Of a DNA stretch of 64,000 nucleotides, positions 12,456-30,178 are shown in pieces; the first letter of the stretch is position 1; every line of letters begins with the position of its first letter. The DNA comes from a virus: positions 1 through 64,000 of IMG/VR virus record IMGVR_UViG_3300025141_013863; one strand, 5' to 3'. The notes beneath the pieces are model-generated. The model made no database searches. It was not told the origin of the DNA and saw nothing but the letters and a program-made list of their open reading frames with translations. Both the position numbers and the translations under genes were made by a program.

Positions 12456-13416
12456 CGTTTTAGTTAGCGGCGTTGGAGGTGATGTAGGACAAGGAGTTAT
12501 CAGGTGTCTTAATAAATCTGATTTAGAATTGCGTATATTTAAAATTAGCTCAAGTGTTAATGATTCGTGGCTTTATCTTGATAATGATTGTTTTATTAGT
12601 CCTACAATTTACGAAGATTATATATCTTACTTAATTAAGTTTATTAATACTCATAAGATTGATATATTCTTTCCTTGCATAGATTTAGAAATACCCATAA
12701 TTTCAAAAAATAAAGACAAAATACAGTCTAAAACAAGTTGCAAAGTTTTTGTTGATGATTATCATAAAATTCAAATTTGTAACGACAAATATATGACAGC
12801 AAGATATCTAGAGGATTTTTCGTTATCATGCCCAGAAACAGATCTGATCACAACGATTGATCACAATAAGTTTCCTGTAATTATTAAGTCAAGAGAGGGT
12901 TGTGGCTCAAAAGATATTCACCTTATATATAGCAAAGAAGAGATAAGGCCATTTCTAAATAATAAAGACTATATTATTCAAGAATATTTAGATGGAGACG
13001 AATACACCGCTGGTGTTTATCTTGGAGAGGATAATAGAATAAAAGGCGTTTGCATTTTAAAAAGAACCCTCAAAGACGGCTCAACATATACTGCCGAACG
13101 TGTATTAGACTTGCAGCTGGAAGAAGAGATTGCAGCTATAGCTAGCCACGTCAGAATGAAATATTTAAATATTCAATTTAGATTAAAGAATGGAAAAGTT
13201 TGTCCTTTCGAACTAAATGGTCGTTTTTCCGGAACTACTGGTATTATTAGCAATGTTTTTAATGCACCAGAAATGGCAATCAAAGAACTTGTTTTAAAAA
13301 AAAATGTGTCTCCTTTCTTGCATAGTAAGAAATTTTATGTTATGAGATATTATGAAGAAATTTTTTCCACACAAGAGCAGCGAGAAGAACTTTTAAATAG
13401 GAGTAAGGATGATTGA
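12448..13416 (+). CDS. ATP-grasp ligase (polysaccharide-locus CarB-like type)
   Basis: DKY, PVIIKSREGCGS, IIQEYLDGDEYT, FELNGRFSG. Confidence 0.85.
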   Translation: MINVLVSGVGGDVGQGVIRCLNKSDLELRIFKISSSVNDSWLYLDNDCFISPTIYEDYISYLIKFINTHKIDIFFPCIDLEIPIISKNKDKIQSKTSCKVFVDDYHKIQICNDKYMTARYLEDFSLSCPETDLITTIDHNKFPVIIKSREGCGSKDIHLIYSKEEIRPFLNNKDYIIQEYLDGDEYTAGVYLGEDNRIKGVCILKRTLKDGSTYTAERVLDLQLEEEIAAIASHVRMKYLNIQFRLKNGKVCPFELNGRFSGTTGIISNVFNAPEMAIKELVLKKNVSPFLHSKKFYVMRYYEEIFSTQEQREELLNRSKDD

Positions 13417-14098
13417 TACCGTAGTATTTGATTTTGTCAATACATTAGCTTATCTAAACCCAAAAAGAGAAGATGTGATTTATAACTTTTTGATCGATAA
13501 GGGAATAAAGCTCAACAAGAGCAAGGTTCTTGATGCGTTAAAGATAGCCGACGATCAATGTCATTATAGTTGTTTTGAGATTGTTGATAAAGACTCTAAG
13601 AAAAACTTTTTTCAAACGAAATATAACAAAGCACTTTTAATGGCCCTAGACGTAGACTATACAATTGCAAATTGTATTGCGCTTTATGACTATTTCGATA
13701 ACTTATATAAAGAGTGGATTTTACATGATGGCGCCATGGAAACAATTAAAGAATTAAAGAAACTAGGCTATACTGTTGGAGTGGCATCTAATTTTGAACG
13801 CAGTCTAAAAACAAAGTTGGCAGATAGTTTGGGCCTCGTAGAACATTTAGATTTTCTAGAAGTCTCTCAGTGCATTGGCTTAGAAAAGCCAGATATCAAA
13901 TTTTATGAATATGTTATAAAGAACAATAATTTAAAGCCAAACAATACATTATATATTGGCGACAGCTATATGTTAGATTACCTGCCAGGAGAAGAAGTGG
14001 GCTTTAATTGTTGCTTATACGATAAGAATAATATTTATGGATCTGTGTCTAATAGAATAAATCACTTTAATAAAGTTTTGGAGTATATTAACAAATGA
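13409..14098 (+). CDS. HAD-superfamily hydrolase
   Basis: FDFVNTL, SN, EKPD, IGDSYMLD. Confidence 0.85.
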   Translation: MIDTVVFDFVNTLAYLNPKREDVIYNFLIDKGIKLNKSKVLDALKIADDQCHYSCFEIVDKDSKKNFFQTKYNKALLMALDVDYTIANCIALYDYFDNLYKEWILHDGAMETIKELKKLGYTVGVASNFERSLKTKLADSLGLVEHLDFLEVSQCIGLEKPDIKFYEYVIKNNNLKPNNTLYIGDSYMLDYLPGEEVGFNCCLYDKNNIYGSVSNRINHFNKVLEYINK

Positions 14099-14706
14099 GA
14101 CACAATCCGTACAAAATTGTAAAAATGTTTGAAGAAACAATGGCCGATTACTGCGGTTCAAAATATGCTGTATCTACAGATAACTGTACAGATGCATTAT
14201 TGTTGTGTTGTGAATATCTTAATGTTAAAGAGGTTACGATCCCATCGCGGACTTATCTTTCTGTTCCGCAATCGATTTTGCATGCCGGCGGAACATTGAA
14301 ATTTAGAGATTATAGATGGAAGGGAGTATATCAACTGGAGCCCTATCCGATTTATGATGCAGCTAGGCGCCTTACGAGTAATATGTACATCCCAGGAAGC
14401 TTCATGTGCCTTTCCTTTCACATCAAAAAACACCTAAAGATAGGCAAGGGTGGTATGATTTTAACTGACGACGAGCAGGCCGCAAGGTGGTTTAGAAAAG
14501 GTCGTTATGAAGGCAGATCTGAGGTGATGTATCATAAGGACAATATTGAAATTAATGGCTGGAACGCATATATGAGTCCTGAGCAGGCGGCTCGCGGCCT
14601 AATGCTAATGCAAAATTATCCAGAACACAATGAGGATATACCCGAAGAACCGTTTTACAGAGATCTAAGAGAGTTTAGCCTGTTTAAAGATGTAGAGACA
14701 AAATAA
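14095..14706 (+). CDS. compact DegT/DnrJ/EryC1/StrS PLP aminotransferase
   Basis: FEE..A.Y.G.KYAVS.DNCT, YDAA, SFHIKKHL..GKGG. Confidence 0.8.
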   Translation: MRHNPYKIVKMFEETMADYCGSKYAVSTDNCTDALLLCCEYLNVKEVTIPSRTYLSVPQSILHAGGTLKFRDYRWKGVYQLEPYPIYDAARRLTSNMYIPGSFMCLSFHIKKHLKIGKGGMILTDDEQAARWFRKGRYEGRSEVMYHKDNIEINGWNAYMSPEQAARGLMLMQNYPEHNEDIPEEPFYRDLREFSLFKDVETK

Positions 14707-15435: not shown

Positions 15436-16326
15436 ATGATTACATTTTCAGAACTAGGTCGCCTTGGGCGTTTAGGAAATCAATTTTTTCAATATAGTGC
15501 CCTTCGATCGTTATCGTTATATCACGGATATGCCATGGCCATTCCAAATCCTAAAGATAGAGATTGGCATGGACAAAATTGTTTATTGAATGAGTTTAAT
15601 ATTGAATGCCAATTTTTAAACGCACAGAATTCTAGCGACATAACCATGTTATATCGTGAGCCAAATCATATGAGCTTTGATCCTGAATTTTTTAATATCA
15701 AGGACAATACAAACTTGTATGGTTTTTTTCAAAGTACTTTGTATTTTAAACATTGTGAGGAGCAAATCAAAAAAGAGCTTACTCCGAAGCAACATCACCT
15801 TGATAATGCTAAAAAAGCTATTCAACACATAAAAGAAAAATATCCCAATCATGAGATAGTGTCAATTCACTTGCGTCGAGGGGATAATACAGATGGTTCA
15901 AATCCAAGCAAAGAGCTTAATGAAATGTATGGAAAAAACAATGAACTTGATCCAAACAGTTTTTATGGTAAGTATATTAATGCTGCTTTTGAACAGTTTG
16001 AAAATAAAAAAGTAAAGTACTTAGTATTTTCAGGAGGAGCAAGATTTGCCGGCAATGACAATATATCTGATATCGAATGGTGCAGACAAAATCTTAAAGG
16101 AGATAATTTTGTTTTTTCAAAAGGAAATACCGCTATAAATGATTTTTCATTGATAATGTCTTGTGATCACAACATTATAAGCCATATTAGCTCTTTTGGC
16201 TGGTGGGCCGCATATTTGAACCAAAATCAGGATAAAATCGTAGTAGCACCAGAAAAATACCACCCAGATATGCCAGAATACACCTATAGAGAGGGATTTT
16301 ATCCCGATAACTGGAGATTAGTGTGA
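15436..16326 (+). CDS. GT11 alpha-1,2-fucosyl/colitosyltransferase
   Basis: GRLGNQFFQY, GFFQS, HLRRGD, SSFGWWAAYL. Confidence 0.9.
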   Translation: MITFSELGRLGRLGNQFFQYSALRSLSLYHGYAMAIPNPKDRDWHGQNCLLNEFNIECQFLNAQNSSDITMLYREPNHMSFDPEFFNIKDNTNLYGFFQSTLYFKHCEEQIKKELTPKQHHLDNAKKAIQHIKEKYPNHEIVSIHLRRGDNTDGSNPSKELNEMYGKNNELDPNSFYGKYINAAFEQFENKKVKYLVFSGGARFAGNDNISDIEWCRQNLKGDNFVFSKGNTAINDFSLIMSCDHNIISHISSFGWWAAYLNQNQDKIVVAPEKYHPDMPEYTYREGFYPDNWRLV

Positions 16327-17321
16327 GTTTTTGGAAGGATAAAAAGGTTCTTGTAACTGGTGGCGCCGGGTTCATAGGCTCAAATTTATGTAAAAATTTA
16401 GTTTTAGAGGGCTCTAATGTCGTTATAGTTGATAATTTCGAAAGAGGAAAGGTAGAATACGTTCAAGAAATCTTAGATTCTTGCAAATTGATAGAAGGCG
16501 ATCTAAAGGATGTGAGTTTTTGCGAAGAAATTTTCACTTCAGATGTTGATATTGTCATTCATATGGCATCCAAAGTGGGCGGAATTGGTCTTTATACATC
16601 ACAGCCACACACAGTAATGAGAGAAAACATGCTGATTGACTCTAATGTTTTAAAATCTGTCTTACACAACAATATTAAAAGGTATTTTTATGCTTCAAGT
16701 GCTCATATTTATCCGAAACAGCTGCAAGGTACCCCAAACTCCATAGCAATTAGAGAGTACCATGCATACCCAGCAGATCCAGAGCTGTCATATGGTTGGG
16801 CAAAATTAATTTCGGAGAAAGAAATTGAATGTGCACTAATAGAAAGACCAGATTTGTGTGTAGCAATCGCAAGATATATTGGAATTTATGGAGAAAATCA
16901 AGATTTTAATTTAGAAACAGGCTCCTGTATTCCTGTATTTACAAATCGTGCAATAAATTATCCACAGATTCCGTTTAGTGTGTGGGGCACAGGAAGAGAA
17001 ACAAGATCATATTGTTTTATTGATGATGCAATTGAATGCACGAAACTGATGATTGAAAAAATGGAAGAGAAGAATCAAGTTGGGCCCTATAATGTTGGCA
17101 AGCAAGAGCGTGTTTCAATTAAAGAACTAGCCGAAGCGGTCATAAAAACATCCGGCAAAGAAATTGATATTGAATTTGATCTAACAAAAGAGACTCTTAT
17201 ATGGGGCCAATGGTGTGATTGCAGCAAAGCAAAACAAGAAATAGGATTTGAAGCCAAAACAAGCCTACAAGAAGGCCTTAAAAGAGTTTATAATGATATA
17301 CAAGGAAGGATAAAAAAATGA
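16323..17321 (+). CDS. NAD-dependent NDP-sugar epimerase (GDP-mannose 3,5-epimerase-like)
   Basis: TGGAGFIGS, HMASKVGG, YASSA, YGWAK, WGTG..TRSY. Confidence 0.85.
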   Translation: MSFWKDKKVLVTGGAGFIGSNLCKNLVLEGSNVVIVDNFERGKVEYVQEILDSCKLIEGDLKDVSFCEEIFTSDVDIVIHMASKVGGIGLYTSQPHTVMRENMLIDSNVLKSVLHNNIKRYFYASSAHIYPKQLQGTPNSIAIREYHAYPADPELSYGWAKLISEKEIECALIERPDLCVAIARYIGIYGENQDFNLETGSCIPVFTNRAINYPQIPFSVWGTGRETRSYCFIDDAIECTKLMIEKMEEKNQVGPYNVGKQERVSIKELAEAVIKTSGKEIDIEFDLTKETLIWGQWCDCSKAKQEIGFEAKTSLQEGLKRVYNDIQGRIKK

Positions 17322-18247
17322 GGATTCTTATAACTGGAGGCGCCGGGTATATCGGTAGTGAACTAGTAGATCATCTTTTAAGAGATGGTCATGAAGTTAC
17401 TGCGATGGATAATTTGATGTACGATGCGACATCTTTATTGAGATATACGATTCATCCAAATTTTAATTTTATAAAAGCAGATGTTGTTAACATAGATTTA
17501 TTGAGAGAACAAGTGTCTAAGGCTGATGTTATTATTCCTTTGGCTGCTCTCGTTGGATTTCCGCTCTGTGACAGAGATAAGAGAGGCGCCGTAGAAATTA
17601 ATCATGGAGTAAATGCCTGGATTGCTAAAAATAAATCTGATGATCAGATGGTAATATATCCTTGTACTAATTCTGGCTATGGAGTTAGTGTCGACGGCTC
17701 TGTTTGTACAGAAGAGTCTCCGCTAAATCCTGTCTCATTATATGGACAGACGAAGGTCGCTGCCGAAAAAGAATATAAGAATGTTGATAATCATGTAACG
17801 TTTAGACTGGCAACAGTATTTGGCCCCGGTTCAAGAATGAGAACAGACTTGCTTGTTAATAATTTTGTTCTTAGGACTCTTCGCGATCGAGTATTGGTTC
17901 TTTATGAGTGTGAATTTATGAGAAATTATGTACACCTACAAGATGTATGTCGGGCATTTAAATATGTTATTGACAACTGGGAATCTTGTAAAAACGAAAC
18001 TTACAACGTGGGCAACGATGCAATTAATATGAATAAGCTGCAGCTTGCAAGAAAGATTGGCCAACATCTCCCACTTGAGATTATAAAAGCGGAATTTACT
18101 TCTGATCCTGATACGCGCGATTATATCGTAAGCAGCCAAAAATTTTATGATAAAGGATTTGAATGTAAGTATGATTTAGATGATGGAATACGACAACTTA
18201 TTAAAGCGTATAGCATTATTGAATCTCCATGGTACGCAAATTATTAG
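17318..18247 (+). CDS. NAD-dependent NDP-sugar epimerase/dehydratase
   Basis: TGGAGYIGS, LAALVG, YGQTK, RLATVFG. Confidence 0.88.
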   Translation: MRILITGGAGYIGSELVDHLLRDGHEVTAMDNLMYDATSLLRYTIHPNFNFIKADVVNIDLLREQVSKADVIIPLAALVGFPLCDRDKRGAVEINHGVNAWIAKNKSDDQMVIYPCTNSGYGVSVDGSVCTEESPLNPVSLYGQTKVAAEKEYKNVDNHVTFRLATVFGPGSRMRTDLLVNNFVLRTLRDRVLVLYECEFMRNYVHLQDVCRAFKYVIDNWESCKNETYNVGNDAINMNKLQLARKIGQHLPLEIIKAEFTSDPDTRDYIVSSQKFYDKGFECKYDLDDGIRQLIKAYSIIESPWYANY

Positions 18248-18255
18248 GAAAGAAA

Positions 18256-19206
18256 ATGTCATTTTGGAAAGATAAAACAGTATTAGTAACCGGCGGCCAT
18301 GGCTTTGTGGGTACTCACGTTATAAGAATGTTAAAAGAAAAAGAGGCTGCAACCATACATGCCCCATCTAGATATGATTATGATTTAACAGTTGAACAGC
18401 AGGTGCAATTAATGTTTGAGCACCTCAGACCTGATGTCGTAATTCACTTAGCAGGAAAGGTTGGTGGAATTGCCGCAAACAAGTCAGATCCGGGAACATT
18501 TTTTTATGACAACATTATGATGGGTACCCTTGTATTAGAATATGCTCGCCGCTATAATGTTCAGAAAACGGTTGCTCTAGCGGCAGGATGCGGCTATCCA
18601 TTAAATTTAGAGGTGCCATATACTGAAAATGATTTTTGGAGTGGTTTACCTCAAGAAGAATCGATGGGATATTCAATGGCAAAAAAGATGTTAATAGTAC
18701 AATCTTGGACGTACCGATTACAATATGGGTTCAACTCATCGATATTATTACCAGCAAATCTTTATGGACCTAATGATAATTTTGATCTAGAGAAGAGCCA
18801 TGTTGTTCCAGCCCTGATAAGAAAATTTTTAGATGCCAAGCAAAACAATATACCACTAGTAGAAGTGTGGGGTACAGGCGCCGCGACAAGAGAGTTTTTA
18901 TATGTAGAAGATACTGCGAAAGCTATTCTTGATGTTGCTGAAAAGTTTAATCATAGCGGTCCTTTAAATTTAGGCACGGGTGTCGAAACATCTATTAAAG
19001 TACTTGTCGAAACAATTGTAGAACTTGTTGGCTATGAAGGAGATGTAGTGTGGAACACTGATCGTCCGGACGGACAGCCTAGAAGATTTTACTGTATGGA
19101 AAGATTTAGAAAGCACATGGGATATGTTCCGAGCACACCATTAAAAGAAGGCCTACAGAAGACAATCGATTGGTACCTAAATTCGACAGATAAGAAGAGG
19201 TTGTAA
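18256..19206 (+). CDS. fcl: GDP-L-fucose synthase family (Fcl/WcaG/ColC)
   Basis: GGHGFVG, HLAGKVGGI, YSMAKK, PANLYGPNDNF, SHVVPALI, WGTG..TREFLYV. Confidence 0.85.
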   Translation: MSFWKDKTVLVTGGHGFVGTHVIRMLKEKEAATIHAPSRYDYDLTVEQQVQLMFEHLRPDVVIHLAGKVGGIAANKSDPGTFFYDNIMMGTLVLEYARRYNVQKTVALAAGCGYPLNLEVPYTENDFWSGLPQEESMGYSMAKKMLIVQSWTYRLQYGFNSSILLPANLYGPNDNFDLEKSHVVPALIRKFLDAKQNNIPLVEVWGTGAATREFLYVEDTAKAILDVAEKFNHSGPLNLGTGVETSIKVLVETIVELVGYEGDVVWNTDRPDGQPRRFYCMERFRKHMGYVPSTPLKEGLQKTIDWYLNSTDKKRL

Positions 19207-20232: not shown

Positions 20233-20646
20233 ATGACAAGAAAGTACCTACCCACGCTGTCAGAATTGATAGATAGATTATCAATTGCACAACTAAAAGA
20301 AGTGTTTATTACGGAACATAAAGAGGAGTACGCAGAGGAAATTTCTGATATTCTTCATGATATTAATTTGACTTTAAAAGAAAAAGAGGTTATATTAGAT
20401 GCTGATGCTGTTAGAGCAATTGTTGTTTTGTCACAAATGAATTTGCATATTTGGCACAATGAATCAAATTACCGCAAAGGGATCAAAGATGGCAATAACT
20501 TAGAGCTTACGCACGGCTTAAATGGTATTCGCAACACTGCTAAAAACAAGATACAAGAACTTGCGGGCGGTAGAAAAGATTATAAGATTGACTGCCTTGC
20601 CGCAGAATTTAAAGATTGGGAAATAAGTTGGAAACAAGAAGATTAG
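20233..20646 (+). CDS. helical hypothetical protein (DUF4254-like)
   Basis: LSELIDRLSIAQLK, NLHIWHNE; coupled within operon. Confidence 0.55.
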   Translation: MTRKYLPTLSELIDRLSIAQLKEVFITEHKEEYAEEISDILHDINLTLKEKEVILDADAVRAIVVLSQMNLHIWHNESNYRKGIKDGNNLELTHGLNGIRNTAKNKIQELAGGRKDYKIDCLAAEFKDWEISWKQED

Positions 20647-22154
20647 ATGTCTTATTCGTACACACAAACTCTTCAAAAAAGATTTATCAAGACTTAGCAA
20701 AAGATCATTCAGCGATCGAGCCTCCTATTTGGGCGGCCATGTTAGCTAATCATTGTCGAGCTAATGGTTTTGGTGTTAATATATTAGATTGTGAAGCAGA
20801 AAGAATAGACGATGAAACGTCGGCCAATTTAATCAGTGATATGAATCCTAGAGTGGCTTGTTTTGTGGTTTATGGTCAACAGCCTAGTGCGTCTACACAG
20901 AATATGCAAGGCGCCGTGGATACTGCAAATATGTTAAAGAAGGTTGATCCTTCTATCCCTATCTTATTTGTCGGCGGCCATGTGTCGGCATTGCCCAGAG
21001 ATGTGTTGCGTAATGAGCCATCTATTGATTATATATGCCAGAATGAAGGCGTATACACTATCAGTAATTTGTTAGCAGCCCTTCAAAGTTCAAATTTTGA
21101 TCCGAGCAAAATCCGTGGCTTAGGCTACAGAGATGATTCTGGAAATCCTATCTTAAATGAAACAGAATCTATTGTTGCCAAGAAAGATCTTGCACACCAA
21201 TTGCCTGGAATGGCTTGGGATTTATTGCCTGATATTACAAAGTATAGAACAGCCGGCTGGCATTCCTGGTCTAATAATACCGAAAAAGAGCCTTTTGCTG
21301 CTTTATATACAAGCTTAGGGTGTCCCTATAGATGTTCATTTTGTATGATCAACATTATTAATCGAACTAATTCGGCCGTCAACATTGCAAGTGCTGATAG
21401 TAATATATTCAGATGGTGGGAGCCCGAATTTATTATAGGCCAATTTGATGAAATTGCCAGGATGGGTGTCAAAAATGTTAAAATTGCTGACGAGTTGTTT
21501 GTATTAAACCCTCGACATTTTATGAAAGTTTGTGAATTGCTAATTGAAAGAGACTATGGTTTTAATATTTGGGCATACTCTAGAATTGATACCTGTAAGC
21601 CTGCATATCTAGATACTTTAAAGAAAGCTGGTGTAAACTGGTTAGGTCTTGGTATTGAAAACCCCAACCAGACTTTGCGCCAGCAAATACATAAAGACAA
21701 CTACAAAGAAGTAAAGATTACTGATATCATGGATAGTATGAGAAACGCTGGTATAAATGTAGCAGCGAACTATATTTTTGGCTTACCAATGGACACAGAA
21801 GAAAGCATGCAAGGCACCCTTGATTTTGCAATGGAAAATATGTCAGAGATGGTGAATTTATATTGTGCCATGGCATACCCAGGAAGCCCACTACACCTAA
21901 CTGCAAAGAAAGAAGGCTTGATCCTTCCACAGGCTTATTCTGGTTATAGTCAACATTCTTACGATACATTAAATTTATCAAGCAACAACCTTACATCGAA
22001 ACAGATATTGGGCTTTAGAGATAAAGCATGGATGCAATATCATACGAATCCAGAGTATTTGAAGCTATTAGAAACAAAGTTTGGTACCGTGGCTCGCCAA
22101 AATGTGGAAGCCACAACAAAGATTAAATTAAAAAGAAAATTATTAGGAGATTAA
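20616..22154 (+). CDS. cobalamin-binding radical SAM enzyme (class B methyltransferase-like)
   Basis: N-terminal B12 domain (PPIW, VGGH, EG), CPYRCSFC, DELF, LGIE, IFGLP; exact start uncertain. Confidence 0.9.
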   Translation: MGNKLETRRLDVLFVHTNSSKKIYQDLAKDHSAIEPPIWAAMLANHCRANGFGVNILDCEAERIDDETSANLISDMNPRVACFVVYGQQPSASTQNMQGAVDTANMLKKVDPSIPILFVGGHVSALPRDVLRNEPSIDYICQNEGVYTISNLLAALQSSNFDPSKIRGLGYRDDSGNPILNETESIVAKKDLAHQLPGMAWDLLPDITKYRTAGWHSWSNNTEKEPFAALYTSLGCPYRCSFCMINIINRTNSAVNIASADSNIFRWWEPEFIIGQFDEIARMGVKNVKIADELFVLNPRHFMKVCELLIERDYGFNIWAYSRIDTCKPAYLDTLKKAGVNWLGLGIENPNQTLRQQIHKDNYKEVKITDIMDSMRNAGINVAANYIFGLPMDTEESMQGTLDFAMENMSEMVNLYCAMAYPGSPLHLTAKKEGLILPQAYSGYSQHSYDTLNLSSNNLTSKQILGFRDKAWMQYHTNPEYLKLLETKFGTVARQNVEATTKIKLKRKLLGD

Positions 22155-22159
22155 ATAAT

Positions 22160-23104
22160 ATGCCCGCAGACAATAAAAACAAAGTTACTGTTTTAAAACT
22201 TAGAAGACAAAAGAGAGAAGGAACAAAGACTGTGCTAGTCACAGCATATGATTATCCGCAAGCACGTATTGCTGATAATGCCGGGGTCGATGCTATTTTG
22301 GTAGGCGACTCTTTGGGAATGACAACTCTTGGCCACAAGACAACAATCCCGGTTACTATGGATGACATGATGGCGCACTGCGAAGCGGTGTCCCGTGGTT
22401 CAAAGCGTGCTTTTTTGATTGGTGATATGCCTTATATGTCGTATCAGATTTCCAACGAAGAAGCTGTTAGGAACGCCGGCAGATTTATTTGTGCTGGAAT
22501 GGATTGTGTCAAGGTCGAGGGCGCCCAAACCGAAAGAATTAAGGCTATTGCTGATTCTGGAATTATGGTAATGAGCCATTTGGGCCTCACTCCCCACACT
22601 CGCGCAAAGTTAGGCGGATATCGCGTGCAAGGCAAGACCGCAAAGCAAGCAGAAATTATTCTGGAACAGGCACTAAGGCTACAAGAAGCCGGCTGTTCTT
22701 TCTTGCTCTTAGAGGGTATGCCAAGAGAATCTGCAGCAATGATTACAGAAAGCTTAAGAATTCCTGTTTATGGTATTGGCGGCGGAGATATGGTCGATGG
22801 ACAACTTGTGATCTTTCACGATCTAACTGGATTATTTTGGGAGTTCAAGTCTAAGTTTGTCAAGAGATACTGCGAGGCCGGCCAGCTTATGCAATCTGCA
22901 CTAGAACAATATGCACAAGAAGTCAGAGAGGGCGTTTTTCCCGCAGAAGAGAATTTTTACGCCATCAGGGAAGAAGAGCTTGAAAAGCTTCTCGGAGACT
23001 CAAAGTGGAAGTATGAAACTGATCAGGGTTTTCCTACAAACCATAGCGTAACTCCAAACACCGTTACATTAAAAGAAGATCCTTATAAAAAAAAATTGTC
23101 ATGA
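22160..23104 (+). CDS. panB: 3-methyl-2-oxobutanoate hydroxymethyltransferase family
   Basis: TAYD, LVGDSLGM, GDMPYMSY, VKVEG, HLGLTP, LLLE, GIG, DGQ. Confidence 0.92.
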   Translation: MPADNKNKVTVLKLRRQKREGTKTVLVTAYDYPQARIADNAGVDAILVGDSLGMTTLGHKTTIPVTMDDMMAHCEAVSRGSKRAFLIGDMPYMSYQISNEEAVRNAGRFICAGMDCVKVEGAQTERIKAIADSGIMVMSHLGLTPHTRAKLGGYRVQGKTAKQAEIILEQALRLQEAGCSFLLLEGMPRESAAMITESLRIPVYGIGGGDMVDGQLVIFHDLTGLFWEFKSKFVKRYCEAGQLMQSALEQYAQEVREGVFPAEENFYAIREEELEKLLGDSKWKYETDQGFPTNHSVTPNTVTLKEDPYKKKLS

Positions 23105-23173
23105 CCAATGAGTTAAGACGAGAACTATTAGAAATTTTTAAAGAACCATGGTCAATACAATAAAGAGAAATAA

Positions 23174-25006
23174 ATGAAATTAGCTGATTATGTTATAAAT
23201 TATCTTGCCGATATCGGAGTTAAAGAAGTGTTTGTTGTTTATGGCGCCGCCAATGGTAGCCTTATCGACGCATTTACAAGAAACGATCAAATTAGATATG
23301 TGGCGACCATGCACGAACAGGGTGCCGGATTTGCAGCAGAAGGATATGCCAAGGTTTCAAAAAACATAGGTGTTGCGATCGCCACTAGCGGCCCTGGTGG
23401 AATGAATTTTGTAACATCTGTCGGTAATTGTTTTTATGATTCGGTGCCCTGTCTGTTTATTACGGGCCAGATTAAAACAAAGTACATGCGACCTGACGAG
23501 TCAATTCGCCAGATCGGATTCCAAGAGACAGATATTGTAAGCATTGTGAAGCCATTAGCTAAATATGCGAAGCTTATCGAAGACCCGAATAGTATCAAAT
23601 ATGAACTACAGAAGGCCATTTATCTTGCAAAGAACGGTCGACCGGGCCCAGTATTTTTAGATATTCCCATTGATGTACAAAAAGCAGATATTGTTCCTGA
23701 AAGGTTAATTGGTTTTGATGAAGAACTCCAAGAAGTTTGCTACAATAATAGTAGAATCGAGGAACAAATAGATCGTTTTCTGAAAGATTTATTCAAGTCA
23801 GAGCGTCCCTGCTTAATGGTTGGCGGCGGCGTTCGTCTAGCGGATGCTGAAAAAGAGCTGCTTGAGTTGGCAAGAATCTTAAAGATACCGTGTTTTCCCA
23901 CATGGAATGCATTAGATATTGTTGCTTCAGATTTTGAATATTATGGCGGCCGTATTGGAACATATGGTGGAGCCGGAAGAAACTTTGGAATCCAAAATTC
24001 CGATCTATTGTTGGCAATTGGAAGTCGTATTTCTGGTAGAATTACTGGCGGAGAGCCTCACTTGTTCGCAAGAGGAGCTAAGAAATATATGGTAGACGTT
24101 GATGGAGCCGCTATGCAAAGAAAGCTACAACAGCTGCCATTTGATGAGTGTATCCTTTCGGATGCTAAGCTATTTATTAGCCTGATGATTAAGAAACTAA
24201 AGAACTATGATGTTCCAGATTATACACAATGGACAGAGAGAGTGATGGAATGGAAAGTAAAATATGATCCAGTAACAAAAGACATGTATAATCCTTCTCA
24301 ATATATTCATCCATATGTGTTTTTAAGAATTCTTTCCGAAGAAATGGGCGCCAATGATATTCTAGCAGGTGATTGTGGTGGAAATATTGTTGCCATTAAT
24401 CACTCTTTTGAAACCAAAGTGGGACAACATTATTTTACTAATAATGGAAACTCTCCCATGGGATTTTCATTCGCCGGCGCAATGGGCGCATGCTTTGTAG
24501 CAGAGGATACACAGAATGTTGTATGTGTAATTGGTGATGGTGGAATGAATATGAATATTCAAGAAATTCAAACCGTAATAAATTATGGTGTTAAACTAAA
24601 AACTATTATATTGAATAATCATATTTACGGAATTACAAAAGCTTTTCAAGAAGTTAACTTTGAAGGTCGCAGCGAAGCATGTGGACCAAAAGGTTATAAT
24701 CCTCCAGACTTTATTAAAATTGCAAAAGCATATGGCATCGATAACATGATTATTGAAGATGGAACAGACTATGAAAAAGTTCGTAGACAGATTCGTGAAT
24801 TTTTAGATCATGATTCGGCAGTTATTTGTGACGTAAATTGTCACGAGTATCACACATATGAACCAAAGATTGTTGGATGGTCTACTCCTATTGAAGATAT
24901 GTACCCTTATCTTCCGCGAGAAGAATTCTATTCTAACATGGAGATCGAGCCATTAGAAATTTCTAAGGATCCTCCAATGCCAAGTATTTTTAATAAAAAG
25001 GATTAA
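23174..25006 (+). CDS. ThDP-dependent acetolactate-synthase-like enzyme (YerE-like context)
   Basis: HEQGAGFAAEGY, TSGPG, GRPGPV, GDGG...LNN ThDP motif. Confidence 0.9.
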   Translation: MKLADYVINYLADIGVKEVFVVYGAANGSLIDAFTRNDQIRYVATMHEQGAGFAAEGYAKVSKNIGVAIATSGPGGMNFVTSVGNCFYDSVPCLFITGQIKTKYMRPDESIRQIGFQETDIVSIVKPLAKYAKLIEDPNSIKYELQKAIYLAKNGRPGPVFLDIPIDVQKADIVPERLIGFDEELQEVCYNNSRIEEQIDRFLKDLFKSERPCLMVGGGVRLADAEKELLELARILKIPCFPTWNALDIVASDFEYYGGRIGTYGGAGRNFGIQNSDLLLAIGSRISGRITGGEPHLFARGAKKYMVDVDGAAMQRKLQQLPFDECILSDAKLFISLMIKKLKNYDVPDYTQWTERVMEWKVKYDPVTKDMYNPSQYIHPYVFLRILSEEMGANDILAGDCGGNIVAINHSFETKVGQHYFTNNGNSPMGFSFAGAMGACFVAEDTQNVVCVIGDGGMNMNIQEIQTVINYGVKLKTIILNNHIYGITKAFQEVNFEGRSEACGPKGYNPPDFIKIAKAYGIDNMIIEDGTDYEKVRRQIREFLDHDSAVICDVNCHEYHTYEPKIVGWSTPIEDMYPYLPREEFYSNMEIEPLEISKDPPMPSIFNKKD

Positions 25007-25008
25007 AT

Positions 25009-25902
25009 ATGGAATACAACATGAAGTACCTTGAAGGGGGTGTTTGGAATGAAACTGACAACAGAGTTGTTGCAACTATACTTCCTTACCTAGTTTATTC
25101 TTTTGCAAAGCCAAAGATGGTTGTTGCAGAAGTCGGCGTTTGGGAAGGTAACTCATTAGCGCTTTATATTCGAAAGATAAAAGACTTAGATGGAAAGCTA
25201 TATTTAATTGATTGGTGGAAAGGCAGCAAGCATGTCGAAGAAGAAGCAGAGATGTCATTTAACGAAGACATCTATGAAGAAGCATATCAGAAAGTTTTAA
25301 AGATCGTTAATGAAAACGATGCACAAGATAATGTAGTGATTCTTAAGGGCGATAGTGTTGAAATGGCAAAACAAATACCCGATGGAGAGCTGGATTTATG
25401 CTTTATTGATGCTGGTCACACGTATGAAGAATGTAAAAAAGATATTAAAGCTTATTTGCCTAAAGTTAAAAAAGGCGGCATAATGGCCGGCGACGATATG
25501 GATGGAGTAGTAAGTTTTTATACATATCTTGTTAACCTTGGCACCTATACCGTAGAAGAATTAAGCATGGATGTCGTTGACAACAAGGGACATCCAGGCG
25601 TACATGCAGCTGTGTGGGATTGCTTTCAAGTTAATGTTAATACGATCTCGGATGGATGGTATACTTTTGCTGGATATAAAATAGTCAGAGCGGCTATTGG
25701 TATTGTTGACGCCGAAGCCGATGCAAAATTTTGGAGTAAAGGTATTTCATCTGGAGAATATACGGGCCAAATTGTTCCCTTTAAGGGAGGATACCACCTC
25801 TTAACAAATAAACATGTTTTTCTTGTCCCAGAAGGATGGACACAGCCATCAGGCATGCACACAGTTACGGAAAACAAAACGACAGCTTGGTTGATGAAGT
25901 AA
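25009..25902 (+). CDS. class I SAM methyltransferase (Methyltransf_24-like)
   Basis: EVGVWEGNS, IDWW, FIDAGHTYE, GGIMAGDD. Confidence 0.82.
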   Translation: MEYNMKYLEGGVWNETDNRVVATILPYLVYSFAKPKMVVAEVGVWEGNSLALYIRKIKDLDGKLYLIDWWKGSKHVEEEAEMSFNEDIYEEAYQKVLKIVNENDAQDNVVILKGDSVEMAKQIPDGELDLCFIDAGHTYEECKKDIKAYLPKVKKGGIMAGDDMDGVVSFYTYLVNLGTYTVEELSMDVVDNKGHPGVHAAVWDCFQVNVNTISDGWYTFAGYKIVRAAIGIVDAEADAKFWSKGISSGEYTGQIVPFKGGYHLLTNKHVFLVPEGWTQPSGMHTVTENKTTAWLMK

Positions 25903-25923
25903 TAATTTAAAGAGAATAAACTT

Positions 25924-27111
25924 ATGACATTCAAAAAAGAAAGAGAAAAAGAAATTAGGTTTCCACTAGCGATGGAAACAATCGATAACAACGATATTGA
26001 TGCCTTGTGCAGCTGGCTTAAATCTTATCCTAGGCTTACGAAAGGTGATCTAACTAAGGAGTTTGAGAGTCAGTGGGCAGAATATATTGGAACGAAATAT
26101 TCAGTCTTTTGTAATTCTGGATCCTCCGCTAATCTTCTTATGATCTACGCTGCATATGCTTCTGGCAAAATGAAAAATAATAAGATCGCCGTGCCTTCTG
26201 TTGGGTGGGTCACCACGATTGCCCCAGCAATGCAATTTGGCTTAGAACCAATTATGATTGGCGCAGATAAAGAAACATTTGGCATGGACTTAGACCAGTT
26301 AGAGAAGCTGTGTGAAGAAGACATTCCTGGCGCCGTAATTTTTGTTCAAGTGTTGGGTGTCCCTCACTATAAAGAAAGAATCCTGCAATTACAGAAGAAG
26401 TATGGCTTTGTGCTTTTAGAAGATTCGTGTGCCGCTTTAGGGGCAGAATACTCCGATGGAACTATGATTGGTGCCCTGGGCGATATGTCTAGTTTTTCCT
26501 TTTATTTTGGACACCAGCTGTCATCTATTGAGGGAGGCATGGTTAATACCGACAACAAAGAGCTTTATGATTTGATGTTGATGCTGCGCAGCCATGGCTG
26601 GGGAAAGGATCTTGATCAAGAGACATACGATGGGCTGATTCAACAGCACGGTGTGGATGATTTTCATAAGCCGTTTACTTTCTTTGTCGCAGGATTTAAC
26701 CTGCGCTCGACAGATCTACAGGCATTTTTGGGACTCAGACAGATGAAAAAAGCAGGCTGGGTTGCCCAAAGAAGGTATGAAAACCACAAACGATATGCAG
26801 AAAATTTAAAGGGCTATGTAGAATTTCAAAATTGGCGTGATCATAAACCAGTATCTATTTCATTTGGAGCCCTTGCAGACAGTACGGAACATCGACAAAC
26901 TATTGTAGAAAGACTTGTTGAGAACAAGATAGAGACAAGAATTTTTAGCGCCGGTAATCTAGGACTGCATCCTTTTTGGACGGAGCAGTATGGCGAATTT
27001 GATGACGAAATGAGCAATAAGATACATTCATGTGGGTTCTTTGTACCAAATTACCCAGAACTCACTAACGAAGATATTGATTATATTTGTAGCGTTATAA
27101 AAGGTGAGTAA
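25924..27111 (+). CDS. DegT-family PLP/PMP NDP-4-keto-6-deoxyhexose 3-dehydratase (ColD/RfbH type)
   Basis: NSGSSANL, EDSC, SFYFGHQLSSIEGG (His replaces Schiff-base Lys), RSHGW, GFNLR. Confidence 0.85.
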   Translation: MTFKKEREKEIRFPLAMETIDNNDIDALCSWLKSYPRLTKGDLTKEFESQWAEYIGTKYSVFCNSGSSANLLMIYAAYASGKMKNNKIAVPSVGWVTTIAPAMQFGLEPIMIGADKETFGMDLDQLEKLCEEDIPGAVIFVQVLGVPHYKERILQLQKKYGFVLLEDSCAALGAEYSDGTMIGALGDMSSFSFYFGHQLSSIEGGMVNTDNKELYDLMLMLRSHGWGKDLDQETYDGLIQQHGVDDFHKPFTFFVAGFNLRSTDLQAFLGLRQMKKAGWVAQRRYENHKRYAENLKGYVEFQNWRDHKPVSISFGALADSTEHRQTIVERLVENKIETRIFSAGNLGLHPFWTEQYGEFDDEMSNKIHSCGFFVPNYPELTNEDIDYICSVIKGE

Positions 27112-27848
27112 TGAGAATTCTTGTTATTGGAGATAGTTGCAAAGACGTTTTTATTTATGGAGATTGTAGTAGATTAGCTCCAGCAGCGCCAGTTCCTGTA
27201 TTTGTCGAAAAGTATAGAAAGACCAATAAAGGCATGGCCGGCAATGTTTATGAAAATGTATTATCTCTAGGGGTAAAGTGCGATATAATTACTAATAAAG
27301 CCGAGATTATAAAGACTCGTTATGTTGAAAAAAAGACCAATCATATGATAGTGCGTGTTGATTCTGATGAAGAAAAGATCGATAGAATCAAAGATATTAA
27401 CATAGAAGCTCTACAGCAATATGACGCAGTTATAATTTCTGATTATAATAAGGGCTTTTTGCTTGAAGAAGATATACAATTTATTGCTGATAATCATGAG
27501 CTTGTTTTTTTGGATACAAAAAAACTTTTAGGCGATTGGGCAAGGAATATAAATTTTATTAAAATTAACGAACAAGAATATGAAAGAACTAGACACCTTT
27601 TGGTAGATAAAGAATGGCTTGACGAAAAGTTGATTGTTACAATGGGCGCCCGCGGCTGTATATACAATGGTAATATTTATCGAGTTCTTCAAGTTGAAAT
27701 TAAAGATTTGACAGGAGCCGGCGACTCGTTTTTGGCAGCCTTAGTTTATAAGTTTGTTAAAGAGGCAGATATAATATCTGCTATAAAATATGCCAATGAA
27801 TGTGCTACAAGAGTTGTACAACAAAAAGGAGTTAATACAATTAAATGA
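27111..27848 (+). CDS. PfkB-family heptose-7-phosphate kinase (HldA / HldE N-domain)
   Basis: VIGD..KD, RLAPAAPVPV, GMAGNV, ISDYNKG, DLTGAGDSF. Confidence 0.85.
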   Translation: MRILVIGDSCKDVFIYGDCSRLAPAAPVPVFVEKYRKTNKGMAGNVYENVLSLGVKCDIITNKAEIIKTRYVEKKTNHMIVRVDSDEEKIDRIKDINIEALQQYDAVIISDYNKGFLLEEDIQFIADNHELVFLDTKKLLGDWARNINFIKINEQEYERTRHLLVDKEWLDEKLIVTMGARGCIYNGNIYRVLQVEIKDLTGAGDSFLAALVYKFVKEADIISAIKYANECATRVVQQKGVNTIK

Positions 27849-28132
27849 CATTTAAAGAATACTATCAATATTATTTGACTTTACATCAGAATCCTACAAA
27901 TAGATATTTACACGTACTAGGCCAAATGGTGACCATTAGTTATGTTGTATCAATGATCGCAGCCGGCTGGTGGTGGGCACTATTAGCAGCACCATTTGTG
28001 GTATATCCGTTTGCGTGGACCGGACACTTTTTCTTTGAGAAGAATACACCGGCCGCCTTTTCGCGCCCTATTTGGGCGAAAGCGTGCGATTGGGTTATGC
28101 TTAAAGATATTTTGACTGGAAAACTTAAGTGA
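27845..28132 (+). CDS. DUF962/Mpo1-like membrane protein
   Basis: YLTLHQNPTNRYLHVLG, FAWTGHFFFEKNTPA. Confidence 0.8.
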   Translation: MTFKEYYQYYLTLHQNPTNRYLHVLGQMVTISYVVSMIAAGWWWALLAAPFVVYPFAWTGHFFFEKNTPAAFSRPIWAKACDWVMLKDILTGKLK

Positions 28133-28521
28133 AACTAGTTTGGGTAAATGGGTGTTTTGATGTTTTACATCGTGGGCATCTTGAAATGTTGAAGTATGCT
28201 AAGTCTCTCGGTGATTATTTAATGGTAGGCATTGATTCTGATCAAAAAGTAAAGAAAGATAAAGGTAGTAATCGTCCGTTTAATAATGCTGAAGATCGTA
28301 AGTTTGCTTTAGAATCAATAAGATATGTTGACAAGGTGCTGGTTTTTAATTCTCGTGCAGGATTAGAACACTTAATAAAACTATTAGAACCAGATTATAT
28401 GGTTATTGGTTCGGACTGGAAAGGAAAAGAAGTTGTAGGTGAGTCATATTGCACAGAATTAAAATTTTTTGATAGAATAAGTACATACTCAACAACAAAG
28501 ATCCTGGAAAATAATAAATGA
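28129..28521 (+). CDS. heptose-1-phosphate adenylyltransferase (HldC / HldE C-domain)
   Basis: NGCFDVLHRGH, GIDSD, KG..RP, GSDW, YSTT. Confidence 0.85.
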   Translation: MKLVWVNGCFDVLHRGHLEMLKYAKSLGDYLMVGIDSDQKVKKDKGSNRPFNNAEDRKFALESIRYVDKVLVFNSRAGLEHLIKLLEPDYMVIGSDWKGKEVVGESYCTELKFFDRISTYSTTKILENNK

Positions 28522-28856
28522 CGTTTGTATTTGACATCGACGGAACAATCTGCACTACTACAGACGGTGATTATGATTATGCAGAGCCAATACGGGAACG
28601 TATAGAGCTTATAAATAATTTATATGATGAAGGCCACACAATAGTTTTTCAAACAGCCAGAGGTATGGGCAGAACAAACAACAACCAACTGGCGGCATAT
28701 GTAATGTTTTATAATTATACTGCGGAACAGCTAGAAAGTTGGGAAGTTAAATATCATGCCTTATATTTAGGCAAGCCATCTGGAGATATCTATGTTGACG
28801 ATAAAGCGATGCGAGATGTTGATTTTTTTGAACAAATGGAGAAATCTTTACAATGA
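28518..28856 (+). CDS. small HAD phosphatase (capsule-biosynthesis type)
   Basis: FDIDGTI, TARG, GKP, YVDDKA. Confidence 0.82.
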   Translation: MTFVFDIDGTICTTTDGDYDYAEPIRERIELINNLYDEGHTIVFQTARGMGRTNNNQLAAYVMFYNYTAEQLESWEVKYHALYLGKPSGDIYVDDKAMRDVDFFEQMEKSLQ

Positions 28857-29218
28857 GCAAAAAGAAGCCACTATCAATGAAGCACGTCCCTAAAGGCTGG
28901 GGCTGGGAACGATGGATTGTAAATTGTCCAGAATATTGCGGCAAGCTTTTGTTTTTTAATAAAGGGAAGCGATGTTCGTGGCATTATCACAAGATTAAAG
29001 ATGAAGTATTTTACCTACAGTCTGGTAAAATGATGGTTTACTATTCTATGAACGATGATATAAGAGAAGCAAGTCAAATAATACTTAATCCTGGTGAAAA
29101 ATTTCATGTAGCAACTGGCTTGCGACATCAAATGGTTGCACTGGAAGATAGCGAATTATTTGAATTTTCTACAGAACACTTCGACAGTGATAGCCACAGG
29201 ATCATTAAAGGAGATTAA
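28853..29218 (+). CDS. cupin sugar isomerase-like protein
   Basis: KGWG.E, SWHYHKIKDE, H and EFST cupin residues. Confidence 0.8.
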   Translation: MSKKKPLSMKHVPKGWGWERWIVNCPEYCGKLLFFNKGKRCSWHYHKIKDEVFYLQSGKMMVYYSMNDDIREASQIILNPGEKFHVATGLRHQMVALEDSELFEFSTEHFDSDSHRIIKGD

Positions 29219-30178
29219 ATGAAATTAGTTGTTATAACTGGATGTTTAGGACTAATTGGTATGCATGTTACAAGGCACTGTCTTGAAAAAGGATGGAAAG
29301 TGCTGGGCATTGATAAGATTACGTATGCATCTAATCCTAAAGTTTTAGGCCAGTTTTCATATTATGAAAATTTTGATTTTAGAAAAGAAGACATATGTGA
29401 GCTGAAACAAATGCCAGATTGTGATTACGTGATCAACATAGCGGCCGAATCTCATGTTGGAAACAGTATTGTTGATAGTGAAAGCTTTATTCAATCTAAT
29501 ATCTTTGGCGTTAAACATCTTTTAGACTTAATTAAAAATAAGCAAGACAATGTTAGTGATCGTCCTGTGTTTTTTCATTTTAGTACAGATGAAGTATACG
29601 GTGATATTACCAAAGGGGAGCACACCGAATTTGATATTCTTAAGCCAAGCAATCCATATTCTGCATCAAAAGCTGCAGCAGATATGTTAGTTCTTGCGTG
29701 GGCAAGAACTTATGGAATTAAATATTTAATCTTGCGCCCCACAAACAATTATGGGATAGGACAGTATCCTGAAAAACTAATACCGCTAGCTGTCAAAAAT
29801 CTTATGAGAAATAAAAAAATTAAACTTCACGACAAAGGAGAACCAATTAGAAACTGGCTACATGCTGAAGACACAGCTTCTGCGGTCACTACTTTAATTG
29901 AATCGGGAGTTGTAAACGAAATTTACAATGTAGCTGGCGGGTTTGAACAAAAGAATATAGAAACTATTATTAAAATTTTAGAATCTTATTTTGATGAAAT
30001 AAGAGAAGAGGGTGATTGGAGTGAATATCTTGATCTTTCATATGATAGAGAAGGCCAGGATGTTCGTTATGCTCTTAATGACCAGAAACTTCGTGCGCTT
30101 GGTTGGCGCCCCGAAAAACAATTTGATCGAGAGATTAAAAATATAGTTAATTTTTATAAAGATAATTTTAAATGGTAA
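29219..30178 (+). CDS. rfbB: dTDP-glucose 4,6-dehydratase
   Basis: AAESHV, STDEVYG, PSNPYSASKA, NNYG..QYPEKLIP, R.GQDVRY. Confidence 0.88.
   Translation: MKLVVITGCLGLIGMHVTRHCLEKGWKVLGIDKITYASNPKVLGQFSYYENFDFRKEDICELKQMPDCDYVINIAAESHVGNSIVDSESFIQSNIFGVKHLLDLIKNKQDNVSDRPVFFHFSTDEVYGDITKGEHTEFDILKPSNPYSASKAAADMLVLAWARTYGIKYLILRPTNNYGIGQYPEKLIPLAVKNLMRNKKIKLHDKGEPIRNWLHAEDTASAVTTLIESGVVNEIYNVAGGFEQKNIETIIKILESYFDEIREEGDWSEYLDLSYDREGQDVRYALNDQKLRALGWRPEKQFDREIKNIVNFYKDNFKW

Follow-up and report, generated by a model that had tools for sequence, protein, structure and literature searches.

Five enzyme genes in a phage glycan cluster

The subject of this analysis is a run of five consecutive enzyme genes on the IMG/VR virus record IMGVR_UViG_3300025141_013863, a viral contig of 90,332 bases that is estimated to be 49% complete and of which the first 64 kb (positions 1–64,000, hereafter the window) were taken as the starting point. 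The five open reading frames (ORFs) lie on the plus strand, as do all genes of the window given below, and are separated by intergenic gaps of 2–70 bases. They encode a class B (B12-binding) radical S-adenosylmethionine (SAM) enzyme of 512 amino acids with B12-binding and Radical_SAM domains (20616–22154); PanB, a protein of the ketopantoate hydroxymethyltransferase (KPHMT) family with 314 amino acids (22160–23104; PF02548, TIGR00222); a thiamine diphosphate (ThDP) carboligase of the acetolactate synthase (ALS) fold, similar to YerE and JanthE, with 610 amino acids and the domains TPP_enzyme_N, M and C (23174–25006); a SAM-dependent methyltransferase of 297 amino acids (25009–25902; Methyltransf_24, 71.9 bits in Pfam); and a DegT-family protein of 395 amino acids (25924–27111; PF01041, 224.7 bits), predicted to be a ColD-type, pyridoxamine phosphate (PMP)-dependent 3-dehydratase of nucleoside diphosphate (NDP)-4-keto-sugars. 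The same genes and domains had been described in an initial annotation made from the DNA letters alone; its coordinates are exact, Pfam and NCBIfam agree with its domain calls, and the intact catalytic motifs that it claimed were seen in the radical SAM enzyme, PanB, the ThDP enzyme and the DegT protein.

All genes on the contig are co-oriented, and PhoH, a T4-type baseplate wedge protein and an M23 lysin are encoded, as are two giant virion-type ORFs of 2209 and 3138 amino acids in the window. The nearest cultured relatives show only approximately 30% identity on gp6. The contig belongs to a large, uncultured, marine T4-like phage, and since PhoH, the T4-type baseplate wedge protein and the giant virion-type ORFs are found on this viral contig, the glycan operon is phage-encoded and not a cellular O-antigen locus, the setting that the initial annotation had implied. 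The phage glycan cluster spans about 23 kb (6854–30178), with many glycosyltransferases and nucleotide-sugar short-chain dehydrogenases/reductases (SDRs), and the five genes are located inside it.

The carboligase, the dehydratase and PanB

Among solved structures, the ThDP enzyme scored highest with JanthE (8RPH; 291.5 bits) and 5AHK (283.7 bits), true ALS enzymes reaching at most 215 bits; on the ALS large-subunit equivalog TIGR00118, a score of 366 bits was obtained, below the cut-off of 538. The entry 5AHK, to which its depositor gave the name 'acetolactate synthase II, large subunit', we take to be PpYerE, an identity that was not confirmed; a review mentions that a structure of PpYerE exists, its entry code not being stated. 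The catalytic Glu48 and the GDG motif were invariant in the alignment. In a phylogenetic tree that included six genuine IlvB proteins (720–842 bits on TIGR00118) from bacteria also having YerE-like genes, the window enzyme was placed outside the IlvB clade (Shimodaira–Hasegawa-like approximate likelihood ratio test (SH-aLRT) support of 95) and inside the YerE-like clade (97–99), and the viral ThDP enzymes were split into three deeply separated lineages. Scores against solved relatives and placement in the tree agree, and the enzyme, as it had first been annotated, is by sequence clearly YerE-like and not a housekeeping IlvB.

The predicted carboligase resembles YerE from the yersiniose A pathway of Yersinia pseudotuberculosis as a member of the ALS-fold, FAD-containing, ketone-accepting ThDP carboligases and in its link to an E1/ColD-type dehydratase, but YerE takes pyruvate as its donor and lacks a PanB partner. 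JanthE is a ketone-accepting, YerE-like carboligase whose physiological substrates are not known (PMC12188165, PMC12247030); the window enzyme differs from it by a Gly at the Y297 column and by GDG in place of CDG. At the columns of JanthE Y297 and K567, the window enzyme carries G293 and K565. Exactly one small residue was present at these two columns in all 74 viral PanB-linked ThDP enzymes with data (G with K or R, n = 31; Y with T, n = 35; F with S, n = 8), and both columns were occupied by large residues in 74 of 80 cellular relatives. In JanthE itself, smaller residues, chiefly at K567, increase the yield of hindered tertiary alcohols.

The DegT protein was aligned with ColD over its full length, with His197 falling at the column of ColD His188, which is identifiable from the H188N and H188K chains deposited as mutants. 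ColD was its best solved relative (182 bits vs 138 bits for E1); on the RfbH model it scored 200 bits at a cut-off of 423, and its size of 395 amino acids is ColD-like. A histidine was found at the lysine column in all 64 distinct DegT-family partners of related loci. Because histidine replaces the lysine that would bind pyridoxal phosphate, the protein is read from its sequence not as an aminotransferase but as a sugar 3-dehydratase of the PMP type, and the original ColD-type assignment is retained as the probable subtype. Its gene starts 918 bases past the end of the ThDP gene. A His-type dehydratase was found in 56 of the 61 related loci in which PanB is flanked by 6 kb or more in either direction, and ColD orthologs with 70–90% identity were present alongside the radical SAM–PanB–ThDP cassette in five related loci (L003, L004, L006, L008 and L009).

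This distribution bears on an alternative in which the ColD-like gene would belong to a guanosine diphosphate (GDP)-colitose- or fucose-type module, together with a GDP-fucose-synthase-like (Fcl/ColC-like) SDR of 325 amino acids (18229–19206; NF047922, 272 bits, cut-off 500) and a GT11 transferase (15436–16326), leaving PanB, the ThDP enzyme and the radical SAM enzyme to serve another product. Both of the latter genes lie upstream, and the rank of ColD among the solved relatives favours such a module. However, ColD orthologs follow the cassette in the five loci named above, orthologs of the GT11 and Fcl-like genes being found in L003 only, a His-type dehydratase is present in nearly all well-flanked loci, and no bona fide GDP-mannose 4,6-dehydratase was detected among the cluster proteins scanned. 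We regard a separate colitose-type module as distinctly unlikely; the enzyme could serve both pathways in this phage.

The PanB protein scored 331.6 bits on PF02548, 284.4 bits on TIGR00222 (cut-off 207.55) and 322.3 bits on NF001452 (cut-off 272), and the residues D45, S46, D84, K112, E114, H136 and E181 of Escherichia coli KPHMT are kept as D50, S51, D89, K118, E120, H140 and E185. KPHMT is a class II aldolase producing 4-hydroxy-2-oxo acids, the nucleophile scope of which is governed by I202, I212 and V214 (PMC7610986); the residues at the equivalent positions of the window PanB are within the normal range. Viral PanBs carry a conserved C-terminal extension of approximately 25–48 amino acids (approximately 48 in the window protein). 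In the PanB tree, all viral proteins formed one compact clade (SH-aLRT 88, stem 0.086) inside the PanB radiation, with the two locus architectures described below interleaved on it. The IMG/VR clade was separated from 71 representatives of other PanB clusters at three positions only, H146, V217 and S231, corresponding to Q142, L213 and the Pro of the PKF motif in E. coli. These were rejected as the signature of a new specificity, V217 and S231 being found in cellular sisters too and H146 being missing from other ThDP-linked PanBs.

Phylogenies had been suggested with the initial annotation as a means of setting both enzymes apart from their housekeeping homologues. The expected separation was obtained for the ThDP enzyme and failed for PanB, which nests within housekeeping PanBs and has no residue signature of its own. 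In comparison with E. coli KPHMT (1M3U), the viral protein is of the same family, lies above the equivalog cut-off and has all catalytic residues; it differs by having no panC beside it, a YerE-like neighbour, the C-terminal extension and LTPH in place of LTPQ. Since it is nested among housekeeping PanBs and shows no consistent specificity-changing residues, PanB most likely performs the ordinary chemistry, i.e., hydroxymethylation of a 2-oxo acid, and its position in the tree indicates that it clearly descends from housekeeping PanBs.

The cellular PanBs closest to the viral protein (65–68% identity) were found on two metagenomic contigs, close to genes for an IlvE-type aminotransferase and LeuA in the one (L191, 7368–11863) and adjoining ATP-grasp and ornithine-cyclodeaminase-family genes in the other (L192, 5376–8540); these PanBs probably mark the source lineage of the viral gene. 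A panB gene was also encountered in the cultured Microcystis phage MaAM05 (L095, MW495066.1), where panB, panC, sufBCD, sufS and iscU stand in a row (253330–273876). The gene content suggests that the end of this 274-kb record, which resembles a bacterial chromosome, results from contamination or misassembly. As a cultured-phage case, this panB was set aside, its position beside panC and sufBCD being a housekeeping-type context that is uninformative here.

Linkage of PanB to the carboligase across loci

Searches of IMG/VR returned 80 loci with the PanB query (72–95% identity) and 12 with the ThDP query, giving a total of 92 loci on 85 unique contigs. In 91 of the 92, PanB immediately adjoins a YerE-like ThDP gene; the exception is a contig ending 332 bases upstream of PanB. 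The survey of gene neighbourhoods that had been recommended with the initial annotation hence ties PanB to a YerE-like gene in sugar-nucleotide contexts. Two architectures were distinguished. The window type, (SDR)–radical SAM–PanB–ThDP with a ColD-like dehydratase, was found in 29 loci (22 unique), and the order ThDP–PanB–SDR was found in 62 loci, with the full triad in 60. The ThDP enzyme of the latter is a closer relative of JanthE (432.6 bits), and its dehydratase lies above the RfbH/E1 cut-off (473.6 vs 423 bits; one locus tested). Since one PanB clade is combined with three ThDP lineages and two dehydratase types, we infer that PanB supplies a common small molecule and that the carboligases and dehydratases are matched to different sugar nucleotides.

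When 185,579 species genomes were scanned with the ThDP alignment, 80 cellular YerE-like loci (38–54% identity) were obtained, none of which had a PanB within 10 kb; an E1-type dehydratase was nearby in more than half of them. In the 24 cellular loci surveyed, the ThDP gene was accompanied by SDRs, DegT enzymes, nucleotidyltransferases and glycosyltransferases, and HMGL-like aldolases of the ErwI/BphI type (4 proteins) and NeuB-like enzymes (6 proteins) were also present.

When metagenomes were scanned with the nearest PanB beyond the viral clade as the seed, PanBs at least 60% identical to the window protein almost always had a ThDP gene 1–2 kb away, and the 59 ordinary PanBs, with identities of 49% or less, had no ThDP neighbour. 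Three high-identity PanBs had no ThDP partner. All of them are in cellular contexts (one near genes for an IlvE-type aminotransferase and LeuA, the others among transporters and cellular genes), and at 65–68% identity to the viral protein, they are evidently housekeeping genes. More distant PanB–ThDP pairs (PanB 62–64% identical where full-length) were found in L193, L197, L201–L204, L207 and L208, on contigs that may be viral or cellular. Their neighbours were RmlD, SDRs of the 4,6-dehydratase family, TylC3-type C-methyltransferases, GmhA-like SIS proteins and transketolase/E1-type ThDP enzymes, and no DegT dehydratase was present at these loci; the pairing reaches other sugar chemistries too. 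For the PanB and the ThDP protein alike, close relatives in marine metagenomes, Tara included, number in the thousands, and the module was in no cultured phage searched.

In viromes from oxygen-minimum zones, 'pantoate transferase' was reported as the most abundant auxiliary metabolic gene (AMG) for vitamins and cofactors and was read as a boost to pantothenate and coenzyme A (CoA) (PMC8940887). By this reasoning, PanB could be a true AMG for the pantothenate and CoA of the host, merely co-located with a YerE-type pathway that uses pyruvate as donor, and the passing of the equivalog cut-off, the kept catalytic residues, the housekeeping descent and the abundance in those viromes would all fit. 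We nevertheless consider it very unlikely. The adjacency in 91 of 92 loci persists where gene order, ThDP lineage or dehydratase type differ, PanB stands between the ThDP gene and the reductase in 60 loci, and among viral-type contigs, none was found to carry a high-identity PanB lacking the ThDP partner. The missing IlvC, IlvD, PanC and PanE, noted for the window in the initial annotation, were not found on the whole 90,332-base contig either; PanC, IlvC and IlvD were also not found in five longer relatives, including a 100% and a 90% complete one, PanE having been searched on the contig only. A viral valine or pantothenate route was rejected, IlvC, IlvD and PanC being missing even in near-complete relatives. 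Because PanC, IlvC and IlvD are missing and the adjacency to the carboligase is invariant, a pure vitamin role for viral PanB is unlikely, though host enzymes could still use ketopantoate. What ocean viromes record as a 'pantothenate' gene probably belongs to glycan synthesis.

The pair could instead release a free product, PanB and the ThDP enzyme forming a branched hydroxy-keto acid or acyloin that would be attached to a glycan as an ester or amide, e.g., via the ATP-grasp enzyme encoded at 12448–13416. ALS-fold enzymes do produce free acyloins, and ATP-grasp and HAD genes are present in the same cluster. Yet conservation of the cassette does not extend to the ATP-grasp gene, the constant companions of the cassette are sugar 3-dehydratases and 4-keto-generating enzymes, and the carboligase clusters with enzymes that accept ketones and branch sugars, so that attachment of a free acid or acyloin seems to us very improbable.

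Predicted pathway to a branched sugar

The closest precedent for the gene set was found in the erwiniose, caryophyllose and gastriose clusters (ErwI/ErwJ aldolase-dehydrogenase, ErwE, ErwF; Steitz et al. 2022, PMC9306805), brought together there in a unifying scheme for acyl-branched sugars. For erwiniose, a 4-hydroxy-2-oxo acid is produced by an aldolase encoded alongside and is grafted onto a keto-sugar by ErwE, which refuses pyruvate; the published scheme runs from the ErwI aldolase via ErwE to ErwF (PMC9306805). The product class of PanB, 4-hydroxy-2-oxo acids, is the donor class preferred by ErwE. The phage cluster shares with these systems a YerE-like enzyme beside a maker of 4-hydroxy-2-oxo acids, a reductase gene, genes leading to a 4-keto-3-deoxy sugar nucleotide and, by prediction, the sequence of donor tailoring, decarboxylative addition at C4 and reduction. 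It differs in that its donor enzyme is a folate-dependent PanB of the isocitrate lyase/phosphoenolpyruvate (PEP) mutase fold and not an HMGL-type pyruvate aldolase; no HMGL/BphI-type pyruvate aldolase was found in domain scans of the cluster proteins. Further differences are the phage host of the genes, the ColD-type dehydratase, the attached B12 radical SAM enzyme and a sugar that is possibly a heptose.

In the pathway that we propose, a sugar phosphate, possibly a heptose, would be activated by a module of RfaE-like kinase, phosphatase and nucleotidyltransferase, the NDP-4-keto sugar would be made by an RmlB-like 4,6-dehydratase and/or an SDR similar to 6VO6, and the C3 hydroxyl group would be removed by the ColD-type enzyme. 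In parallel, PanB with methylene-tetrahydrofolate would hydroxymethylate a 2-oxo acid of the host to a 4-hydroxy-2-oxo acid; its canonical substrate, 2-oxoisovalerate, would give ketopantoate. The YerE-like ThDP enzyme would then decarboxylate the PanB-made acid and transfer the acyl unit onto the C4 ketone, giving a tertiary alcohol, and the branch ketone would be reduced by an SDR. Further, lineage-specific decoration could be introduced by the B12 radical SAM enzyme and the methyltransferase, and neighbouring glycosyltransferases would place the sugar in a glycan. On balance, we think it probable, with reservations, that the operon represents the core of a phage pathway to a C4-acyl-branched deoxysugar, in which PanB makes the donor acid for a YerE-type enzyme. 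This core of the branched-sugar interpretation first put forward is the best-supported explanation; corrections were needed as to where the genes reside, which sugar is involved, what kind of PanB is encoded and what the radical SAM enzyme contributes.

Several observations weigh against the proposed pathway. The sequence of PanB is indistinguishable from that of housekeeping enzymes, the nearest cellular PanBs (65–68% identical) stand in cellular contexts, and the lone clade-wide change (Q142H in E. coli numbering, turning LTPQ into LTPH) is not shared by other ThDP-linked PanBs. The SDR encoded after PanB in other loci has no clear ortholog in the window. Ketopantoate, with a quaternary carbon next to the carbonyl group, would be a sterically demanding donor, for which there is no precedent among ThDP carboligases in the literature reviewed. 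The small residues at the Y297 and K567 columns of the viral enzymes would fit a hindered donor and are suggestive, but the pattern follows lineage, and Thr at 567 is common to the PanB-less cellular relatives L096–L098; confounded by ancestry in this way, it was given little weight. Adjacency, finally, shows coupling and not the order of steps.

For the same reason, PanB might also act after branching. The YerE-like enzyme would then transfer an acetyl group from pyruvate, and PanB would hydroxymethylate the resulting methyl ketone on the sugar, or the NDP-4-keto sugar itself. The alpha-hydroxy-ketone of a YerE product could conceivably chelate the metal like a 2-oxo acid does, and the conserved C-terminal extension of the viral PanBs (approximately 25–48 amino acids) also counts in favour of this order. 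Against this order of steps stand the near-canonical PanB sequence without consistent specificity-changing residues and the housekeeping sister genes; moreover, the occurrence of one PanB clade beside three ThDP lineages and two dehydratase types is easier to reconcile with a free acid as the substrate than with a nucleotide sugar. Action of PanB after branching is considered unlikely.

A more specific version of the pathway with PanB as donor maker, which we put forward tentatively and hold to be possible more than probable, is that abundant large marine phages make a new monosaccharide. This would be a 3-deoxy- or 3,6-dideoxy-heptose or -hexose with a ketopantoate-derived, pantoyl-type side chain at C4 (1,3-dihydroxy-2,2-dimethylpropyl), modified by the B12 radical SAM enzyme in this lineage and displayed on virion or host-surface glycans.

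If the pathway is true, the logic of acyl-branched sugars would gain a new donor-forming enzyme, with folate-dependent PanB in place of an aldolase, and would reach viruses, which were described in a 2025 review as unexplored ground for YerE-like ThDP enzymes. The virome genes 'pantoate transferase/panB' and 'acetolactate synthase', now counted as vitamin and amino-acid AMGs, would then have to be read differently, and would be misassigned glycan genes if the more specific version holds. The PanB-linked viral relatives of JanthE suggest 4-hydroxy-2-oxo acids as candidate donors for JanthE-like enzymes. If the ketopantoate reading is true, natural YerE-like enzymes would accept a donor with a quaternary carbon, and for biocatalysis, these would be natural enzymes possibly forming very hindered tertiary alcohols.

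Candidate genes for the acceptor sugar flank the five genes. Directly downstream, an RfaE-domain-I-like PfkB kinase (27111–27848), an RfaE-domain-II-like nucleotidyltransferase (28129–28521), a HAD phosphatase (28518–28856) and a cupin (28853–29218) are assigned to a sugar-activation module, and this set recurs by the cassette in both architectures. It is followed by an RmlB-like NDP-sugar 4,6-dehydratase of 319 amino acids (29219–30178; TIGR01181, 307 bits, cut-off 365), orthologs of which (57–69% identity) lie beside the cassette in many loci of the other gene order. Upstream, an extended SDR (17318–18247) that matches the Protein Data Bank entries 6VO6/6VO8 is a candidate 4-keto generator; it scored 292 bits with 6VO6 and at most 73 bits with any other SDR structure, and it is co-conserved with the radical SAM–PanB–ThDP cassette in L003–L009 (71–85% identity). 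This SDR and the RmlB-like gene are largely complementary in their distribution across loci.

The entries 6VO6 and 6VO8 we take, without confirmation, to be Campylobacter jejuni Cj1427, a GDP-heptose C4-dehydrogenase that recycles NADH with 2-oxoglutarate. In vitro, Cj1427 and a ColD-like C3-dehydratase yield GDP-3-deoxy-4-keto-heptose (PMC10680097). The phage cluster is similar to this capsular heptose pathway of C. jejuni (PMC10680097) in bringing together a 6VO6-matching SDR, a ColD-like 3-dehydratase, a 4,6-dehydratase and a heptose-type activation module. In C. jejuni, however, the 4-keto group is reduced, whereas the phage cluster has a carboligase, and the activation set there is for GDP-heptose, whereas the phage genes are of the RfaE type (ADP-heptose-like). 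The phage looks to encode a seemingly self-contained route to an NDP-4-keto-3-deoxy sugar, the kind of acceptor used by YerE-type enzymes, and the acceptor sugar is possibly a heptose and not a hexose. The NDP-4-keto-deoxyhexose acceptor of the initial annotation is borne out as regards the genes for a 4-keto-3-deoxy route and is open to revision as regards the hexose.

The Fcl-like SDR (18229–19206) was the window protein most matched by the post-PanB SDR of other loci (56 matches, median 45 bits) and is the best, albeit weak, candidate in the window for a reductase of the 4-keto group or the branch ketone, i.e., for the role of YerF.

The radical SAM enzyme scored 59.4 bits on PF02310 and 65.4 bits on PF04055, and its CxxxCxxC motif (C236, C240, C243) was invariant in 17 distinct relatives. 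Its best NCBIfam model was HpnJ (133 bits vs a cut-off of 577.6), no equivalog being reached, and its best solved relatives were AprD4 (51 bits) and TokK (29 bits). The gene is present in 21 of the 29 loci with PanB before ThDP vs 1 of the 62 with ThDP before PanB. Being present in essentially one of the two architectures, the enzyme is unnecessary for making the donor, and the tailoring of the donor for which it had been considered is not supported. It is regarded as accessory, with C-methylation, dehydration and rearrangement all open as candidate reactions. In some relatives, two B12 radical SAM paralogs flank the ColD-like gene, and in others, an additional SPASM-domain radical SAM enzyme is encoded within the same cluster (these arrangements were noted at L010, 9814–14034, and L012, 12472–13677); radical chemistry on the sugar appears to vary between lineages. 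A phosphonate pathway of PEP mutase, phosphonopyruvate decarboxylase and P-methylase was considered over a weak PEP_mutase match of PanB and PhpK-type matches of the radical SAM enzyme; it was rejected because PanB reaches 332 bits on the model of its family, the carboligase has all three domains of the ALS fold, and the radical SAM matches lie far below cut-off.

The methyltransferase has no close solved relative. In the closest relative of the locus, L003, its position is occupied by a GT2 glycosyltransferase, and the gene, originally counted as part of the pathway, is accordingly treated as accessory, since it is not kept even there.

A protein of 137 amino acids (20233–20646), encoded just ahead of the radical SAM enzyme, is associated with the architecture that contains that enzyme, its orthologs in related loci being 76–97% identical; no significant family match was obtained for it, and its Atlas neighbours are virus-only hypothetical proteins. 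The Mpo1/DUF962-like protein of 95 amino acids (27845–28132; PF06127, E 1.3e-30), which is encoded between the kinase and the nucleotidyltransferase, is likewise kept with the radical SAM architecture in relatives (52–76% identity). Mpo1 itself belongs to the Fe(II) dioxygenases, with 2-hydroxy acids as substrates.

The PfkB/RfaE-I-like kinase comprises 245 amino acids vs approximately 315 for the domain model, which it matches in two stretches; the sequence may be shortened or may have lost an internal segment. Elsewhere in the glycan cluster, an ORF of 203 amino acids (14095–14706) shows two partial DegT-family matches, the best covering profile positions 23–93 of 360, and may be a truncated or split aminotransferase gene.

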